From the NCBI GenBank assembly GCA_963663165.1, contig OY760175.1, positions 5,344,001 to 5,408,000 on the forward strand: DNA of 64,000 nucleotides, written 5' to 3'. Under the pieces are notes generated by a model. That model was not told where the DNA came from, made no database searches, and worked only from the letters and a program-made list of their open reading frames with translations. Position 1 is the first letter of the stretch. Each line of letters starts with the position of its first letter. Shown piece after piece: positions 3-8,697 of this stretch. The translations under genes and the position numbers were made by a program. The stretch comes from an uncultured Desulfospira sp. (GTDB lineage: Bacteria > Desulfobacterota > Desulfobacteria > Desulfobacterales > Desulfobacteraceae).

Positions 3-293
3 CTGGGAAACCTTTTTTCCGGGTCCATGGATATGGAACAGATCCTTGGTGGTTTAGGAAATCAGTTTGCCTGGCCTGATGTGGTGGATGGTTTCGGGCT
101 GTGCCGACCTTGCGAGTTCCGGTACCTGTGCGGCGGCATGTGCCTGGCCTGGCATGATCTTCTGCCGGCTCCCTTTGAGCCTGAAATTCACTGCAGAAAG
201 CAGTACGGTTTTTTCAAGCGCCTGACAGGGCAGGCCCGAGCCTGTCTGGAAGCGCATCATCTTCTAAAGACAACAAGTGAAAGGGGTTTCTGA
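3..293 (+). CDS. Radical SAM/SPASM-domain protein, C-terminal part (5'-partial, runs off the window)
   Basis: Frame is open from base 3 (LGNLFSGS...); contains the SPASM-type motif CRPCEFRYLCGGMC and a downstream HC. Confidence 0.75.
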   Translation: MGNLFSGSMDMEQILGGLGNQFAWPDVVDGFGLCRPCEFRYLCGGMCLAWHDLLPAPFEPEIHCRKQYGFFKRLTGQARACLEAHHLLKTTSERGF

Positions 294-2290
294 TGTGGCC
301 TCATGAAATGCTGATGTTCTCAAAGTGGTATGTCCTGGCGGGCAGCCTTGCGGTGGGCCTGGCCTTATATGTTGTGGCTGACGGTGTTCTTTATTATGCC
401 CGCTGGCGGGTCCTGACAAACGGATATCTGGCGGCCTGTTGTTTTTTGACCGGGCTTTTGTGTATGGCGCTGATAGTGTTTATAAACTTCGGTACGCCGT
501 TAAAACAGATCCTGCTTTATCTTTTTTATGGGACGGTTCTGGTGTATCCGGTTTTTCTGTCCATGGCCGCAGCGGTTCGATGGGCCCTGAGGTTAAAGCC
601 TGACGGCGATATCATCAATAACCAGTTGAATGAGGCCCTCCGGGAGAATTCAGACTATGTTTTTACAGTTTTAAAAAAGATTGTTCCAGGTATCCATATG
701 CCCGATAAATTAGGGCTTGTCAGGGCCCTTTGCCATGATAACCCTGAAATAAGGCAAAGTGCCGTGAATGCCGCTCTGGCTGCCGGAATGAACCAGGATA
801 TAGAAAAGGCCGTTCAGGGCGACACCGGTGATTTTGAGCGGCTGGGTGATTTGGGGGATGAAGATTTTCTTTACCGGCTGATGCCCGTTGCCGCCAAAGA
901 CAACAAAGAAGCCATGGCCGCGGCCAGGGGGCTCCTTGCCATGGCCCAAAAGAACGGCATATCACCGGATATGGCATATGTTCTGCTCAAAATCCTTCAG
1001 GACGGTCCGTCGGGTAAAACAACGGAATTCATCCTGAACCGGCTGCTTGAGAACGAGTATGGGGGCGTAATTTATGAAAAACTGCTTCAGGATCAGGATA
1101 AAAAAATCCAGAACCTGGCGGCCCAATTTTATTTTGAGGCTCTAAAAAAAGGTTCCATGCCCGCCCACAGTTCCTGGCGTAAAGCCGACAAAATATTCCT
1201 TAACCGCCATGCCAGGGGTCTCACTGAACTTATGTGTTCCCACAAACCCAATGATCAGAGGAGCGCACTTAACATATGCAGCTTGTTGGGCGTATCCATC
1301 CCGTCGCTTCAAACCGGGAAAAGAGCCGGTGATTATTTTGTACAATTGGGCCGGTCTGAGCAGCCCTGGATTCTGGAACAGTTAATTCGCAATGCCCGGT
1401 CTAAAAAAATTGAAATTGCCCTGCCCGCCGTCAGGGGGTTGGCCGCCATGGTGGAAACAGGCCGGATTCCCGCCGGATTGCAACCCTCGCTAAAGTCCGG
1501 CCGGATCAGGACGTCTGCGCCTGAACAGGCAAACACCCTTGATGCGCCGCCGCCGGAGTTTTTACCGGTAACCGGCGAGGTGTTAAGTTTGCTCTATGAA
1601 AAGATTAAACCGTCCCTGGAGAGGGGCTTGTGCCACCCGGACGGTCAAATACGGCAGGAAGCGGCCCGTCTGGCCGTGGTCTTTGGCATGGACCCGGCCA
1701 TTACCGCCGCAGTCCGGGGGGATCTTAACGATTTTGAGCGGTTGGGAGAATCCGTGGGCGGGGAATTCCTGCTTGATCCTTTGCTCAACATCGCTCTGGA
1801 AGAAAGTCAAGCCAGTGAGCCTGCGGCAAGAGGATTGGCAGGGCTGTACCACCGCTTAAACATTTCCCAGGAATATCTTAAAAAAATGATTCTGCAGGGC
1901 AGGGCCCCGGTGCCGGATATTGCCATCGAAGCACTGGCCAAAAAAGGGGATGCCGGTGCCGGGATTCTGCTGGGTTTGCTGAAATCGAACGACGTTGGCC
2001 TGAGGAAAAAGGCGGCAAAGGCCCTGGTGGCCTGCGCACAGAAAGCTGAAAACGGATTTGGCGACCACTGGTGGACCATGAAAAACCTCATTACTGCCCC
2101 CCACACGGATACCACCGGCAGTCACCAGGACGGGTACCATTGTGATTATGACCGCGGCTGCACCATATACGGGTGTGATCCCCATACGGATATGATGGTT
2201 AAAGACAGGGATGGTTACCGGGTCCACCGCATGAATCGGACCACCCCTCATTCAGATAATATGGGGATTGGATTAAAGTTTGATCCATAG
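293..2290 (+). CDS. Membrane-anchored HEAT-like repeat protein with C-terminal His-X-Asp repeat tail
   Basis: About 3 N-terminal hydrophobic segments; HEAT-like helices (IRQSAVNAA, IRQEAARLA, LRKKAAKAL); tail HTD/HQD/HCD/HTD/HSD; start overlaps the upstream stop (TGATG). Confidence 0.6.
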   Translation: MWPHEMLMFSKWYVLAGSLAVGLALYVVADGVLYYARWRVLTNGYLAACCFLTGLLCMALIVFINFGTPLKQILLYLFYGTVLVYPVFLSMAAAVRWALRLKPDGDIINNQLNEALRENSDYVFTVLKKIVPGIHMPDKLGLVRALCHDNPEIRQSAVNAALAAGMNQDIEKAVQGDTGDFERLGDLGDEDFLYRLMPVAAKDNKEAMAAARGLLAMAQKNGISPDMAYVLLKILQDGPSGKTTEFILNRLLENEYGGVIYEKLLQDQDKKIQNLAAQFYFEALKKGSMPAHSSWRKADKIFLNRHARGLTELMCSHKPNDQRSALNICSLLGVSIPSLQTGKRAGDYFVQLGRSEQPWILEQLIRNARSKKIEIALPAVRGLAAMVETGRIPAGLQPSLKSGRIRTSAPEQANTLDAPPPEFLPVTGEVLSLLYEKIKPSLERGLCHPDGQIRQEAARLAVVFGMDPAITAAVRGDLNDFERLGESVGGEFLLDPLLNIALEESQASEPAARGLAGLYHRLNISQEYLKKMILQGRAPVPDIAIEALAKKGDAGAGILLGLLKSNDVGLRKKAAKALVACAQKAENGFGDHWWTMKNLITAPHTDTTGSHQDGYHCDYDRGCTIYGCDPHTDMMVKDRDGYRVHRMNRTTPHSDNMGIGLKFDP

Positions 2291-2504
2291 TCGGGAAACT
2301 TTTTTATATTAGGGAAACAGATTCAATCTGCTAATGTTTTTACGAAAAGAAAAGGTTTGACAAAACAATGCCAGGGCAATGGGGTCCGGCCCCTATTAAC
2401 CGGCAAAACAATTGAAATTCGGGGTGTTCAAAAAGGCTTGACAGGGCACCACAAGTCCTTTAGTTAATGAGCATCTTGCGATAAACAGATGCTTAGAGGA
2501 TAAT

Positions 2505-2591
2505 ATGTTTTTTCGGTATGATTACTTTTTTATATTTACCTGCTTTGGCAGCTTCTTTTTTACCAGGTCTGCCCAGGGAGAGTTAATGTAA
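2505..2591 (+). CDS. Phe-rich attenuation leader peptide MFFRYDYFFIFTCFGSFFFTRSAQGELM
   Basis: Hand translation: 9 Phe and 2 Tyr in 28 codons; AGAGGA Shine-Dalgarno at 2495-2500. Confidence 0.8.
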   Translation: MFFRYDYFFIFTCFGSFFFTRSAQGELM

Positions 2592-2632
2592 CATATCGAA
2601 AAGATAAGGGTGAACTCAAACCATGGGCAGAC
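2567..2632 (+). promoter_or_regulatory. Antiterminator of the attenuator
   Basis: GTCTGCCCA (2567-2575) is complementary to TGGGCAGAC (2624-2632); GAGTT pairs with AACTC; overlaps the 5' arm of the terminator. Confidence 0.7.
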
Positions 2633-2667
2633 GGAAAAGCCGGCTGATCCATGGTTTTTTTATTTTT
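2618..2667 (+). terminator. Intrinsic attenuator terminator
   Basis: AAACCATGG...CCATGGTTT stem with inner CAG/CTG and CGG/CCG pairs, followed by T7-A-T5. Confidence 0.8.
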
Positions 2668-2737
2668 AGGGGCTTTGGACAGCGGATTAAAAAACAGCCC
2701 GTGACATTTTAAACTTTATTTAAAAGGAGTAAAAACA

Positions 2738-3883
2738 ATGGCAATGAAAAAGATCTTAACCCTGCTGCTGACAATCAGTTTGTGCCTTACCCCCCTTACC
2801 GGGCTGATGGCCAAGACCGTGTACAAGGTGGGCGGCATTTTTTCATCCACGGGCCGGGCCTCTTTTCTGGGTGATCCGGAGATGAAAACCATGGAGATGC
2901 TGGTGGATAAGATCAACGCGGCCGGCGGCATTGACGGGGCCATGCTTGAGGCCGTGATCTATGATTCCGAGGGCGATCCGGCAAAAGCGGTGTCAGCGGT
3001 GAACAAACTGATCCATAAAGACAAGGTCCTGGCCATTATCGGGCCATCCACCACCCCGACCTCCATGGCCATTATCAATTTTGTAGAACGGGCCAAAATT
3101 CCGCTGATTTCCTGCGCTGCCGGGGTGAACATCACCACCCCGATCAAACCCTATGTGTTCAAGACCGCTCAGAGCGATCTTCTGGCCGTGGCCGCCGTTT
3201 ACCAGCACATGCAGAAACAGGGGATCAAAAAGATCGGAATCATCTCTGTGGCCAACTCTTTCGGGGAAAGCGGCCGGGATCAGCTGCTGAATCAGGCCAA
3301 GGATTTCGGCCTTGAGGTGGTCCAGGCTGAAAGTTTCGGGGCCAAGGATACGGATACCACAGCCCAGTTGACCAAAATCAAGTCCAAATCCCCGGATGCC
3401 ATTGTCTGCTGGGGAACCAACCCGGGACCGGCCGTGGTGGCCAAGAACGTTAAGCAGCTTAAAATCGATATCCCCCTTTACCAGAGCCACGGGGTGGGGT
3501 CTCCCAAGTTTATAGAGCTTGCCGGAGATGCGGCTGAAGGCATTATCCTGCCCACGGGCAAAATTCTGGTCACTGATCTGCTGGACCCTGCCGATCCCCA
3601 GAAAAGGATTCTGGAAGATTACCGGGCCGATTATACGGCAGCTTATAAAGGCAATGTTTCCGGGTTTGGCGGGTATGCCTTTGATGCGGTGAATCTTCTT
3701 GCCGGAGCCCTTAAAGGGACCGGGGGAGACAAGGAAAAAATTCGTGCAAACCTTGAAGCCACCCAAAATCATATCGGTGCAACCGGCGAGTTTAATTTTT
3801 CAGATCAAGATCATAACGGGCTTTCCCCGAGTGCCTTTGTTATGGTAGAAATCAAAAACGGAACATGGAAATTAATTAAATAG
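2738..3883 (+). CDS. HAAT/Liv-family ABC transporter substrate-binding protein
   Basis: Signal peptide; INAAGGIDG, YDSEGDP and IIGPSTT motifs of type I periplasmic binding proteins. Confidence 0.9.
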   Translation: MAMKKILTLLLTISLCLTPLTGLMAKTVYKVGGIFSSTGRASFLGDPEMKTMEMLVDKINAAGGIDGAMLEAVIYDSEGDPAKAVSAVNKLIHKDKVLAIIGPSTTPTSMAIINFVERAKIPLISCAAGVNITTPIKPYVFKTAQSDLLAVAAVYQHMQKQGIKKIGIISVANSFGESGRDQLLNQAKDFGLEVVQAESFGAKDTDTTAQLTKIKSKSPDAIVCWGTNPGPAVVAKNVKQLKIDIPLYQSHGVGSPKFIELAGDAAEGIILPTGKILVTDLLDPADPQKRILEDYRADYTAAYKGNVSGFGGYAFDAVNLLAGALKGTGGDKEKIRANLEATQNHIGATGEFNFSDQDHNGLSPSAFVMVEIKNGTWKLIK

Positions 3884-3991: not shown

Positions 3992-4867
3992 ATGCAGGAG
4001 CTGATTCAATATCTGTTTTCGGGAATCACCACCGGTGCCATCTATGCCGTGATTGCCGTGGGGCTGTCCATGCTTTACGCGTCCACCGAACTGATCAATT
4101 TTGCCCATGGTGAATTTGTCATGATCGGGGCCATGGCCATGGTGACGCTTTGGGTCCATTTCGGCCTTCCGTTGCCCCTTGCCATGGCAGGGGCCGTGGC
4201 CATGGGCTGCATTATCGGTCTGTTGTTTGAACGGTTTGCCATTCGCACGGCAAAAACCCCGAACCCCATTGTCCTGGTGATCATTACCGTGGGGGCGTCC
4301 ATTTTTCTAAGGGGTGTTGGCATGATTGCCTGGGGGAAAGACCCGTTCAGTGTTCCGCCGTTTTCCAGCCATGAATCCATTGAAATTTTAGGGGCGGCCC
4401 TGCTGCCCCAGAGTATTTATATTGTGGGCGCCGCCCTGATCCTGGCAGCCGGAATCCATTTTTTCCTCAAAAAGAGCCTTACCGGAAAGGCCATGGTGGC
4501 CTGCGCCGTAAACCGGAAAGCCGCCTGGCTGTCAGGAATCCCGTCTGAAACCATGGCCGTGCTGGCATTCGGCATCAGCACAGGCTCCGGGGCCCTGGCC
4601 GGTGTGTTTATAGCCCCCATCACCATGAGTTCCTATGATATGGGCACCATCCTGGGGCTAAAAGGCTTTTGTGCCGCCATGATCGGGGGGCTGGGCAGCC
4701 TGTGGGGGGCCTTTGCCGGCGGACTGTTGCTGGGGGTGCTGGAATCTTTTGGCGCCGGTCTGATTTCATCGGGCCTCAAGGACGCCATAGCCTTTATCCT
4801 GCTGCTGCTGATCCTTTATGTCCGGCCTTCGGGGCTGTTTTCTGCGGGAGAGGCGAAACGGTTTTGA
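3992..4867 (+). CDS. livH: ABC permease, LivH-like
   Basis: GAIYAVIAVG...INFAHGEF motif; multiple transmembrane segments. Confidence 0.9.
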   Translation: MQELIQYLFSGITTGAIYAVIAVGLSMLYASTELINFAHGEFVMIGAMAMVTLWVHFGLPLPLAMAGAVAMGCIIGLLFERFAIRTAKTPNPIVLVIITVGASIFLRGVGMIAWGKDPFSVPPFSSHESIEILGAALLPQSIYIVGAALILAAGIHFFLKKSLTGKAMVACAVNRKAAWLSGIPSETMAVLAFGISTGSGALAGVFIAPITMSSYDMGTILGLKGFCAAMIGGLGSLWGAFAGGLLLGVLESFGAGLISSGLKDAIAFILLLLILYVRPSGLFSAGEAKRF

Positions 4868-4952: not shown

Positions 4953-5924
4953 ATGAATGAGAATGTTAAAAAAAACCGGCTGGAAGTAGTGGCCTTTGTG
5001 GCGGTTGTCTTCGGTTTAGGGCTGTTTGTCAGGAATGACTATTATCTTCAGATCATGACCTTTATCGGCATCAACACCTTGCTGGCACTGGGGTTGAACA
5101 TGCTCATGGGATATGCGGGCCAGGTTTCTTTGGGGCATGCCGCCTTTTACGGTATCGGGGCTTATACCACGGCCATTTTGTCGGCCACTTACGGGGTCTC
5201 GCCCTGGCTTGCCCTGTTCTGTGCCGTGGGCGCGGCCGTGTTCATTGCCTTTGCGGTGGGGCTGCCGACCCTGAAACTGTCCGGCTATTACCTGGGCATG
5301 GGCACCCTTGGCTTTGGCATGATTGTCAACATTGCCTTCCGGGAATGGAGTACGGTTACCGGCGGGGCATCGGGGTTTGTGGGCATTCCCGTGCTGGAGG
5401 CCGGGCCCGTGGCCTTTATGGAGGGGCAGAATTATTTTTTCCTGGTCTGGGGCGTGGTGCTGGTTGCAATTCTTATTTGCCGCCGCATTCTTTCCTCGCG
5501 CATGGGCCGGGGGCTTCGGGCCATCCATGACGGGGAAAACGCGGCCCTGGCCACCGGGGTGAACACCCATTTTTTAAAGCTTGAGATCTTCATGTTCTCT
5601 GCGGCCCTGGCCGCGGTGGCCGGGTTTTTATACGCCCATTTCGTTTTGTTTATCAGCCCTGAATCCTTTGGGTTCATGGTGTCGGTAAAAATTGTGACCA
5701 TGGTGGTCATCGGCGGCATGGCCAGTGTCTGGGGCGCTCTTCTGGGGGCCTGCCTGCTGACGCTGCTGCCGGAGGTTCTCCATGGATTTGCCGAATATGA
5801 AATGGTGGTGTTCGGCCTGATTCTTATGGTGGTCATGATATTTATGCCCCAGGGGTTGACCCGGGGATTTGTGGATATGTTTTTGCGGTACTGGAAAAAA
5901 AGCCATGACACTCTCGGAGCCTAA
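4953..5924 (+). CDS. livM: ABC permease, LivM-like
   Basis: GYAGQVSLGHAAFYGIGAY motif. Confidence 0.9.
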   Translation: MNENVKKNRLEVVAFVAVVFGLGLFVRNDYYLQIMTFIGINTLLALGLNMLMGYAGQVSLGHAAFYGIGAYTTAILSATYGVSPWLALFCAVGAAVFIAFAVGLPTLKLSGYYLGMGTLGFGMIVNIAFREWSTVTGGASGFVGIPVLEAGPVAFMEGQNYFFLVWGVVLVAILICRRILSSRMGRGLRAIHDGENAALATGVNTHFLKLEIFMFSAALAAVAGFLYAHFVLFISPESFGFMVSVKIVTMVVIGGMASVWGALLGACLLTLLPEVLHGFAEYEMVVFGLILMVVMIFMPQGLTRGFVDMFLRYWKKSHDTLGA

Positions 5925-6699
5925 GGTTGCGGCATCAGAAGACGCCCTGCTGGCGGTGGAAGGTCTGACCAAGCGCTTTGGCGGGGTAACGGCCCAGGAC
6001 AACATCAGTTTTTCCATTGAAAAGGGGATTGTCTGCGGTCTGATCGGCCCCAATGGTGCGGGAAAAACCACCCTGTTCAACATGATCACCGGGATCTACC
6101 GGCCCGATGCCGGCCAGGTGATGTTCAACGGCAAAGATATCCGTAAAAAGGCTGTTCACCAGCGGGTCAGGGAAGGGATTGCCCGGACCTTTCAGCATGT
6201 GGAGCTGTTTTCATCCATGACCTTGCTGGAAAACGTGCTGGTGGGCATGCATGTTAGAACAAAGGCAGGGTTCTGGGGGGCAATCACCCGGCTGCCCCCG
6301 GTTAAAAGAGAAGAACAGGCAGCCGTGAAAAAGGCTGAAGAACTCCTTTGCTTTACCGGTCTTGAAGCCCATGCCTTAAAACCGGCCGGCGACCTTCCCG
6401 TGGGCTTGCAGAAAACCGCCCAGATCGCCCGGGCCCTGGCATCAGATCCGTTACTGCTGTTACTGGATGAGCCGGCCGCAGGCCTTAACGCCGTGGAGAC
6501 TGAACAGCTGGGGCAGTTGATCCGGCGGATCAAGGACAAAGGGGTGACCATGATGCTGGTGGAGCATGACATGAGTCTTGCCATGGGCATTTCAGACAAG
6601 ATCATTGTTCTGGACCGGGGCAAAAAATTGGCCCAGGGTACCCCAAGGCAGATTCAGAACGACGAGGCGGTCATGTCGGCCTACTTGGGCCAGGGTTAA
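5905..6699 (+). CDS. livG: ABC ATPase, LivG-like
   Basis: GPNGAGKTT, IARTFQ, LLLDEPAAG, VEHDM; ATG at 5905 preferred over the ORF-track start. Confidence 0.9.
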   Translation: MTLSEPKVAASEDALLAVEGLTKRFGGVTAQDNISFSIEKGIVCGLIGPNGAGKTTLFNMITGIYRPDAGQVMFNGKDIRKKAVHQRVREGIARTFQHVELFSSMTLLENVLVGMHVRTKAGFWGAITRLPPVKREEQAAVKKAEELLCFTGLEAHALKPAGDLPVGLQKTAQIARALASDPLLLLLDEPAAGLNAVETEQLGQLIRRIKDKGVTMMLVEHDMSLAMGISDKIIVLDRGKKLAQGTPRQIQNDEAVMSAYLGQG

Positions 6700-6703
6700 G
6701 AAA

Positions 6704-7450
6704 ATGCTGAGAATTAAAAATTTAAAATGCGGTTATAACAAGGTCCTGGCCCTGCACGGGGTGAGCCTGTCGGTCTCCAAAGGGGAGCTGATCTCCATTA
6801 TCGGGGCCAACGGCGCCGGGAAAAGCACGTTGCTTCTGGCCATCTGCGGCCTGCTCAAAGAGTGGTCGGGCAGCATTGTGTTTAAGGAAAATTCCCTTGA
6901 AGGCATGGCCGCACCCGCCATTGTCCGCTCCGGCATCAGCATGGTGCCCGAGGGCCGGCAGATTTTTTCCCCCCTGAGTGTGGCCGACAACTTGAAGCTT
7001 GGGGCCTATACCCGGTATAAGAAAAAAGAAAAAAAACAGATTGAACAGGACATTGACAGGGTCCTTGAGATGTTTCCTATCTTACAGGAGCGGTCAGACC
7101 AGCTGGCCGGCACCCTGTCCGGCGGCGAACAGCAGATGCTGGCCATTGGCAGGGCCCTGATGGCAAAGCCGGACCTGCTGGTGCTGGATGAGCCCTCCAT
7201 GGGGCTGGCCCCTAAGATGGTGGACATGATTTTTGCCACCATTCAGGAATTAAAGGACAAGGGGTCCACCATCCTGCTGGTGGAGCAGAATGCAAGGGCC
7301 GCCCTGAAGATTGCTGACCGGGGCTATGTGCTGGAAACCGGCAAGATCGTCCTTCAGGGCAGTGCCGATGAACTGCTGGTGGATGATGATGTCAAGCGGG
7401 CCTACCTTGGCCGGGACTATGGGGATTTTTATGACGGGAGGGATGAATAA
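6704..7450 (+). CDS. livF: ABC ATPase, LivF-like
   Basis: GANGAGKST, LSGGEQQM, LDEPSMGLAP, VEQNA. Confidence 0.9.
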   Translation: MLRIKNLKCGYNKVLALHGVSLSVSKGELISIIGANGAGKSTLLLAICGLLKEWSGSIVFKENSLEGMAAPAIVRSGISMVPEGRQIFSPLSVADNLKLGAYTRYKKKEKKQIEQDIDRVLEMFPILQERSDQLAGTLSGGEQQMLAIGRALMAKPDLLVLDEPSMGLAPKMVDMIFATIQELKDKGSTILLVEQNARAALKIADRGYVLETGKIVLQGSADELLVDDDVKRAYLGRDYGDFYDGRDE

Positions 7451-8697
7451 TGGCAGAACAGATCAGCCTTAACATCAGTGTTGAAGAAAAAGAGCAGCTC
7501 AAGCTGGAGCGGCTTCAAAGTACCCTGAACCGGGCCTATAAAAATGTCCCCTTTCACCGGAGCCGGTTTGAGCAGGAAGGCTTGTCCCCCCAGGATATCG
7601 GCTGCCTTTCGGATTTGCAGCAGCTGCCCTTTATGGAACGCTCCCATTTAAGCCTGCATTATCCTTACGGATTGTTTGCCGTTCCCCTGCGGGACATTGT
7701 CCGGATCCACACGGCCCCCGGAACCTTCGCCAATCCGTCCATCAGCGGATACACCAAAGCAGATCTCCTTATCTGGAAAAAATTGGTGGCCCGCGCTTAT
7801 GAGGTGGCCGGGGTCACGGACATGGACATTATCCAGATTCATCTGCCCCCGGGCCTGGCCAACTGGGCCAGGGATTACAAAGACGGCGGCGAAACCATCG
7901 GCGCCGGGGTCATCCCCAACTCAAGCCTGTCCCTGTCCAAAACCCTGATGGTCCTCAAGGATTACAAAACCACCACCCTGGTCACCACCAAAGCCTTTGC
8001 CCGCCGCCTGACCACCCACCTGTTTGAGACCTTGCACCACCCCAGCGAGTTGAACTTGAAACGGGTTATCCTGGTAGGGGAACCCGTGGATGAAGCAACC
8101 GTTCAGGAATTGAGCGGGCAGCTTCATACCGATATCTGGCGGCATTATGGGTTAAGCGAGATCCCCGGGCCCGCCATCGCCCATGAATGCCCGGACCACC
8201 AGGGATTCCACATCAACGACGACCATATCCTGGCCGAAATTGTGGACCCGGCCACGGGCGCCTCTGTCCCCAAAGGCGAAAAAGGAGAACTGGTCCTCAC
8301 CACCCTTTCGGCCCGGGCTTTTCCCCTGATCCGGTTTAAAACCGGGGACATGGCCGGATTCCTTGACCGGGACTGTGCCTGTCCCTGTCCCCTTGACCGG
8401 ATCGCCTGGTATAAGGAACGGACAGACAATATGATGATCATTTCCGGTATCAAGGTGTCCTGTGACCAGATCCGGTCCTGCCTGAAAACCGCCCTGGACC
8501 TGCCCGACATAGAATGTGCCATCAACCGCAGCGGCAACGGGGATCAGGATGTTCTGGAGGTCTCCCTTAGAATGGGGGATCAGCTGTTTTCAGATGAAAT
8601 CAGGAACCTGGAGCAGGTCATGCGCCGAACCGAGGTGTTCCTGGCAGAACAGGTCGGTGTCCCTGTCAAAATTCATCTGGTTCAGCGCATGGGGTGA
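7450..8697 (+). CDS. Phenylacetate-CoA ligase family protein (PaaK-like, degenerate motifs)
   Basis: YPYGLFAVP..IVRIH, YGLSE, GELVLTTL, PLIRFKTGD; P-loop altered. Confidence 0.8.
   Translation: MAEQISLNISVEEKEQLKLERLQSTLNRAYKNVPFHRSRFEQEGLSPQDIGCLSDLQQLPFMERSHLSLHYPYGLFAVPLRDIVRIHTAPGTFANPSISGYTKADLLIWKKLVARAYEVAGVTDMDIIQIHLPPGLANWARDYKDGGETIGAGVIPNSSLSLSKTLMVLKDYKTTTLVTTKAFARRLTTHLFETLHHPSELNLKRVILVGEPVDEATVQELSGQLHTDIWRHYGLSEIPGPAIAHECPDHQGFHINDDHILAEIVDPATGASVPKGEKGELVLTTLSARAFPLIRFKTGDMAGFLDRDCACPCPLDRIAWYKERTDNMMIISGIKVSCDQIRSCLKTALDLPDIECAINRSGNGDQDVLEVSLRMGDQLFSDEIRNLEQVMRRTEVFLAEQVGVPVKIHLVQRMG

Follow-up and report, generated by a model that had tools for sequence, protein, structure and literature searches.

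A putative phenylalanine-starvation attenuator ahead of a probable aryl-acid importer operon in an uncultured Desulfospira sp.

Why should an operon for an ABC importer begin with a leader that appears to read phenylalanine? This question is raised by a region near the start of a 64,000-nt stretch from an uncultured Desulfospira sp. (assembly GCA_963663165.1, contig OY760175.1). We refer to that whole stretch as the window, and its numbering is used throughout unless another contig position is given. The answer we consider probable is that the leader is a ribosome-sensing attenuator that responds to a shortage of charged Phe-tRNA by switching on the importer, which most likely scavenges phenylacetate-type acids from which Phe is made. 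The features of the locus are collected in Table 1.

Table 1. Leader elements and genes of the importer operon in the window.
Feature	Position	Strand	Description	Basis
Promoter	2438..2466	+	Probable sigma70-type; TTGACA 2438-2443, 17-nt spacing, weak -10 at 2461-2466	Inferred, read from sequence
Shine-Dalgarno-like site	2495..2500	+	AGAGGA, of the leader ORF	Read from sequence
Leader peptide uORF	2505..2591	+	28 codons, among them 9 Phe and 2 Tyr; sensing is predicted at codons of about 7-19 (2523-2561)	
Outer protector arm	2506..2520	+	Predicted partner 2592-2606 when the leader is untranslated	Folding prediction
Segment A (1)	2530..2556	+	Forms the A:B protector with segment B; the loop holds the end of the Phe run	
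Segment B (2)	2567..2584	+	Antiterminator 5' arm, within the uORF right after FFF-T-R	
Segment C (3)	2613..2632	+	Antiterminator 3' arm and also terminator 5' arm	
Intrinsic terminator C:D	2618..2667	+	Stem 2618-2657, D = 2648-2657, U-tract 2655-2667	
Segment E	2671..2679	+	Pairs with D at 8/9 in the read-through state	
Binding protein	2738..3883	+	Substrate-binding protein of Liv/HAAT type, most similar to aryl-carboxylate binders	
livH-type	3992-4867	+	ABC component	
livM-type	4953-5924	+	ABC component	
livG-type	5905-6699	+	ABC component	
livF-type	about 6704-7450	+	ABC component	
PaaK2	7450..8697	+	PaaK-like paralogue; altered P-loop, C-terminal A10 lysine motif absent	

The leader ORF and its competing helices

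The 5' leader holds a short uORF behind a putative ribosome-binding site, and its translation is predicted. The site, the 28 codons and their Phe and Tyr content are as a preliminary description of this DNA had given them. The Phe codon cluster exceeds chance: of 2000 dinucleotide-shuffled versions of the 447-nt intergenic region, 3 contained an ORF of 12 to 40 codons with at least 9 Phe, and 5 of 5397 SD-led short ORFs genome-wide had at least 7 Phe at a share of at least 25%. The FFF run makes up codons 17-19 (2553-2561), and 146 nt separate the end of the uORF from the first gene at 2738. The probable promoter was not among the predictions of a consensus promoter scan of the window. Several homologous leaders also have TTGAC(A) upstream at a comparable spacing.

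We folded the two structures for which alternative pairing had been claimed. In the fragment 2560-2640, the antiterminator pairs 2567-2577 and 2580-2584 with 2613-2632 (-27.2 kcal/mol, z -5.15), and none of 200 shuffles was as stable. In the fragment 2610-2675, the terminator forms a hairpin at 2618-2657 that runs into its U-tract (-21.6 kcal/mol, z -2.59, 4/200 shuffles). Both need nucleotides 2621-2632, which are common to them, and the two are therefore mutually exclusive. Thus, folding bears out the claim that pairing of 2567-2584 with 2613-2632 excludes the terminator, and it adds a protector helix and segment E to the picture. The whole untranslated leader folds as this protector (2530-2556 with 2565-2591, and 2506-2520 with 2592-2606) plus the terminator (z -3.46). 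A simple terminator scanner run on the window did not list the C:D terminator, likely because the loop and bulges exceed the scanner's limits.

Predicted response to a stalled ribosome

We modelled the switch by blocking the bases under the ribosome codon by codon, with two footprint settings and equilibrium folding of 2468-2664. In this model of the window leader, the probability of the terminator was 1.00 without a ribosome, 0.95-1.00 with the ribosome at codons 1-4 and 1.00 from codon 20 to the stop, while, whichever footprint was used, that of the antiterminator was 0.95-1.00 at codons 10-16. The change-over fell at codons 5-9 and the change back, depending on the footprint, at codons 17-19. 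The predicted sensing range therefore spans Tyr7, Phe8, 9, 11, 14 and 17 and, marginally, 18-19, and Phe2, Phe3 and Tyr5 fall outside it. The preliminary description had placed sensing at the Phe codons in a pheL/trpL-type geometry. That geometry and the direction of control hold computationally, but the FFF run does not act alone in the model, where codons of about 7-19 contribute. A stall at the control codons is predicted to free the antiterminator, and full translation is predicted to block it.

The mechanism that we propose would run as follows. When Phe is sufficient, the ribosome would pass codon 20 and cover segment B, so that the C:D terminator could form. Without translation, the A:B protector would sequester B and the terminator would form as well. 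Only a ribosome stalled at Phe codons 8-17 (with 19 marginal) would melt A:B and yet leave B free, in which case B:C would form first and D:E after it, and RNA polymerase would read into the importer operon.

How general this response may be was modelled in 39 homologues. At full equilibrium the terminator dominates without a ribosome in 36/39 and with a ribosome at the stop in 37/37. With D present and the ribosome stalled 8 codons ahead of B, the antiterminator prevails in 21/39 and the terminator in 18/39; with a stall at the last Phe, the corresponding figures are 7/39 and 29/39. Because the terminator often wins at equilibrium despite the stall, switching in those homologues would rest on kinetics. 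In transcripts that do not yet include D, B:C forms in 37-38 of the 39 with a stalled ribosome and in 0/39 with a ribosome on B; it also forms in 23/39 with no ribosome at all, which counts against the switch. The leader is very probably a Phe-starvation attenuator.

Conservation and targets of the leader family

A search of 61 genomes gave 20 orthologues of the binding protein (58-100% identity). The leader lies directly upstream of 10 of these orthologues (self included) and at the head of a longer operon in 3, and none was found at the other 7. Conservation of the uORF upstream of orthologues, which the preliminary description had named as a check, holds computationally. Two of the leaders counted as directly upstream (L007, L008) look decayed. 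Among relatives of the same family, six (L006, L007, L008, L009, L010, L013) have a leader that is decayed or was not found, and they retain the importer.

A pattern built from the terminator arms only matched 29/401 genomes of the order, at 32 places, and its reversed control matched none. Thirty of these loci were fetched; 25 lie before paaK1, 5 before this binding protein and none elsewhere. Once three duplicates had been dropped and two fetched copies added, the alignment held 39 distinct leaders; its RNAalifold consensus is the antiterminator. Of 468 B:C cells, 96.8% are paired, compared with 29-42% in slid controls, and the search pattern had not included the 5' arm of the antiterminator, though kinship inflates all such conservation counts. 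Covariation is seen in 4/12 B:C pairs, with 17 cells changed on both sides, and 0/500 shuffles reach either the percentage or the covariation score. C:D is 97.7% paired, but both of its arms were selected by the pattern. A:B, in a register chosen by eye, is 77.4% paired (best slid control, 62%), with compensatory change in 6/10 pairs and 0/500 shuffles reaching this. The terminator is mutually exclusive with the antiterminator, and the pairing is conserved by compensatory change.

The frame fixed by segment B allowed us to ask how the coding sequence has fared. A uORF start and stop in that frame are intact in 35/39 leaders, with L008, L037, L042 and L054 broken. Phe codons make up 36% of this frame versus 21% and 21% of the other two, and stop codons 0.5% versus 2.3% and 5.5%. 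These figures bear on the view that the element is a constitutive or general translation-rate attenuator in which U-rich RNA merely happens to encode Phe. In its favor, U-rich sequence yields 21% Phe codons even in both wrong frames, and in some relatives the leader is lost or damaged. This view does not fit the in-frame enrichment of Phe, the depletion of stops or the uORF length differences among homologues, which by eye are mostly whole codons, and we regard it as highly improbable.

The starvation attenuator has well-known counterparts. In the his operon attenuator, six segments form A:B, C:D and E:F against B:C and D:E, and pheM-pheST, like pheL-pheA, is a Phe leader system. Like the his attenuator, the leader family has a chain of alternative helices, with D:E pairing at 8 or 9 of 9 positions in 32/39 homologues. 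Unlike it, C:D and E:F both end in U-tracts, so that the terminators are tandem; the second hairpin with a U-tract follows the first in 28/39 homologues. In the window, D:E is retained (8/9), but E:F has shrunk to a 5-bp stem and its U-tract is absent. Thus, C:D alone is the working terminator there. The gammaproteobacterial pheL-pheA leader is alike in its short uORF with Phe runs, its antiterminator opposed to an intrinsic terminator and its read-through on Phe shortage (PMC3082878), and the same source gives a possible pheL before pheA in Desulfobacterium autotrophicum. Unlike pheL, this family encodes a peptide that is longer, at about 19-30 codons, and has Tyr among the Phe, and its targets are paaK-ACT, an ABC importer, DAHP or ADH synthase and an aminotransferase.

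A search of the window with Rfam models (Phe_leader, leader and T-box families) gave no match at gathering score and, at E up to 10, only unrelated sub-threshold ones. As no Rfam match was obtained at any threshold, the leader forms a sequence family separate from Phe_leader, and it would be a new RNA family for Rfam. We did not find a Phe leader before paaK or before an aryl-acid importer in the literature, where attenuation surveys in subscription journals and supplements could list one; this target is unmentioned in the accessible parts of PMC2965389 and PMC9413887. The mechanism is classical textbook attenuation, while the leader family and its target are apparently undescribed.

We then ran a covariance model, built only from the 39-leader alignment, on a 151-genome sample of the phylum. 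It matched 25/151 genomes (self included) and yielded 25 further loci, nearly all with Phe/Tyr-rich uORFs. The targets, of which representatives only were checked against protein families, are DAHP synthase (12), ADH synthase (1), PRK06836 aminotransferase (3), paaK1 (3, one with a TPR gene between leader and paaK1), other Liv-type binding proteins (3) and a metallo-beta-lactamase-fold gene (1), with 2 unassigned. DAHP synthase, ADH synthase or an aminotransferase thus follows at 16/25 loci, and the element can be read as a marker of aromatic amino-acid supply. That the leader is common to de novo synthesis genes points to supply and not to breakdown. The preliminary description had called a transporter and CoA-ligase target unusual. 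An importer is less odd a target in a leader family that also serves these three kinds of gene, and providing Phe is the most likely role of the operon.

The codon content of the leaders follows the target. Trp codons occur in 11/12 DAHP-synthase leaders versus 2/39 paaK/importer leaders, a comparison of related sequences without a statistic. The pattern is what one would expect if all three aromatic amino acids were sensed at their common step, and Phe and Tyr at the salvage step. That Trp codons track the target gene also speaks against Phe codons as a by-product of U-rich RNA.

The same targets bear on a TnaC-like arrangement, in which free Phe or a derivative in excess would arrest the ribosome on the peptide and so induce a catabolic uptake and CoA-ligase operon. 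PaaK is chiefly known as an enzyme of phenylacetate catabolism (PMC8388817), a stall anywhere upstream of B would promote read-through, and the peptide end F-F-x-K-S-x-H-G is fairly constant among homologues. However, RNA segment B accounts for the constant tail, and the many Phe codons occupy shifting positions with no single fixed residue. Moreover, a homologous leader stands before DAHP and ADH synthases, which excess should repress and not induce. We give this arrangement very little credence.

Several loci deserve mention in their own right. The leader family precedes PRK06836 pyridoxal-phosphate aminotransferases at L141, L148 and L150, which suggests that the PRK06836 proteins behind it are aromatic aminotransferases. 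At L143 a Phe leader lies ahead of a metallo-beta-lactamase-fold protein, possibly a further salvage enzyme, and at L134:1501-1830 two tandem Phe/Tyr-rich leader-like units are followed by a short ORF. In the present genome, the covariance model gave no second significant copy. Two other leaders were seen there: a uORF with a five-Phe run and two tandem terminator-like hairpins before a DAHP synthase-prephenate dehydratase (PDT) fusion (G000:C1:665653-665806, +), and a Tyr/Phe-rich 23-codon uORF with a strong terminator before a pheA-aroE-aroA-aroK-aroC-like cluster, named by eye past pheA (G000:C1:763545-763680, -). The layout of the former resembles this leader family; neither has a significant covariance-model score, and equilibrium folding showed no switch in either. 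A Phe-rich short ORF at G000:C1:~400590 (-), among genes that by eye look like CRISPR-Cas, is probably repeat-derived and not a leader.

What the importer may carry, and to what end

Relatives usually have the order leader-paaK1-ACT-binding protein-livHMGF-paaK2. The lineage studied here has its paaK1-ACT apart at C1:1490082, about 50 nt behind another gene and without a leader. The PaaK1 encoded there has intact motifs and matches the solved PaaK of Burkholderia at E 3e-150, and SSGTTG and GK are retained in 19/19 PaaK1 sequences. In contrast, the P-loop is altered and the C-terminal GK motif is missing in 10/10 operon-terminal PaaK2 copies (the window; L062, L063, L065-L067, L069-L071, L073). 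PaaK2 is conserved all the same, at 47-68% to relatives and 94% in the closest; the window copy scores 266.7 bits versus a family cut-off of 646.3. The A10 lysine is the key catalytic residue of phenylacetate-CoA ligase (PMC8388817). PaaK2 lacks its motif and has an altered P-loop, and it is therefore probably no active ligase; its sequence marks it as a likely pseudo-enzyme, perhaps the heterodimer partner of PaaK1. Of the transporter and CoA-ligase operon in the preliminary description, the importer genes stand, but the "CoA ligase" is probably not an active one.

To judge what the importer carries, we compared the binding protein with solved relatives. It falls short of the LivJ/LivK family (91.5 bits versus 477). 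The positions of LivK Thr102, Tyr202 and Glu226, which we take to serve the amino group, are Gly, Asn and His here; they were mapped via a LivJ/K-like paralogue of the same genome, and the alignment is uncertain near Thr102. The best solved relatives score E 1e-41 to 1e-37, whereas LivK/LivJ score E 4e-16. Among the former is 4fb4, the caffeic-acid complex of an aromatic-acid binder (PMC10374108). These relatives belong to the subcluster B-III aromatic-acid binders (the R. palustris 4fb4 group; Variovorax IadK2, PMC10374108); those serve catabolic operons, and the present protein is only about 30% identical to them, as it is at most to any solved binder. The Arg in the "ARPD" stretch of solved aryl-acid binders aligns with Ala here. 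Overall, the binding protein resembles aryl-acid, not amino-acid, binders.

These comparisons also weigh on whether the same Phe-starvation attenuator governs uptake of L-phenylalanine or tyrosine (or of phenylpyruvate or phenyllactate), with no PaaK or Ior step. The binding protein is annotated as Liv/HAAT family, the leader in this lineage governs only the importer and a degenerate ligase, and there is a predicted precedent in the leader-controlled permease lysQ of Lactococcus lactis (PMC4833913). However, the residues taken to serve the amino group in LivK are missing from the binding protein, which is much more similar to aryl-acid binders, and 25/30 pattern loci head an intact paaK1, the substrate of which is an acid without an amino group. 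Amino-acid uptake therefore seems unlikely to us, and we favor aryl-acid salvage, a likely if less secure reading than starvation control itself, as the attenuator's purpose.

In aryl-acid salvage, the intact PaaK1 and its ACT partner would activate an imported arylacetate, which indolepyruvate:ferredoxin oxidoreductase (Ior) would convert to phenylpyruvate by reductive carboxylation; transamination would then give Phe. Aryl acids feed aromatic amino-acid synthesis via Ior in Methanococcus maripaludis (PMC4162585), and the Ior-linked arylacetate-CoA ligase of Bacteroides has been proposed to be anabolic (PMC13285125). As in those organisms, an arylacetate-CoA ligase and Ior are both present here, with an intact paaK1-ACT and two iorA loci. 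Unlike that route, an importer and a conserved A10-less ligase-like protein are added, and the de novo pathway is present too (DAHP synthase-PDT, pheA-aro). In one relative (L106), iorA-iorB-SBP-livHMGF-paaK form a single cluster, and a Phe-rich ORF before iorAB has, by eye, no clear terminator or attenuator. IorA is present in 58/61 relatives, so near-universal that co-occurrence says little. In this genome, no such leader stands at paaK1 or at either iorA locus. With these genes leaderless and PaaK2 apparently inactive, only uptake would be Phe-controlled here. The accessible parts of PMC4162585 and PMC13285125 describe no leader-peptide control of the Ior route.

A regulatory element can tell the direction in which a pathway runs. 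If the salvage reading is true, a widespread operon of sulfate-reducer-type anaerobes, whose annotation points to phenylacetate degradation and to uptake of branched-chain amino acids, would be an amino-acid salvage route. The reading of sediment and bioreactor metagenomes would then change, from degraders of aromatic compounds to scavengers, with cross-feeding on the phenylacetate of fermenters. Leader-peptide attenuation would be extended to importers and acid salvage, PRK06836 aminotransferases would gain a likely aromatic role, and a conserved pseudo-ligase is flagged.

We also put forward, tentatively and short of calling it probable, a broader reading. One phylum-wide attenuator family with tandem terminators would define an aromatic amino-acid regulon, its codon mix tuned to each target: Phe/Tyr/Trp before DAHP synthase and Phe/Tyr before paaK and the importer. 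The paaK-ACT-ABC-PaaK2 genes, annotated as catabolic, would then serve anabolic arylacetate scavenging with CO2 fixed via Ior for Phe and Tyr, and the ligase-dead PaaK2 would act as a regulatory or channelling subunit.

Upstream of the leader, window positions 293-2290 encode a 665-aa membrane-anchored HEAT-repeat protein with an internal duplication, which is unrelated to it. Downstream of the operon in several genomes (L062, L063, L069, L070, L072, L076, L079, L080), proteins of 768-790 aa that resemble one another lie behind the paaK-ACT/importer cluster, on the same strand.
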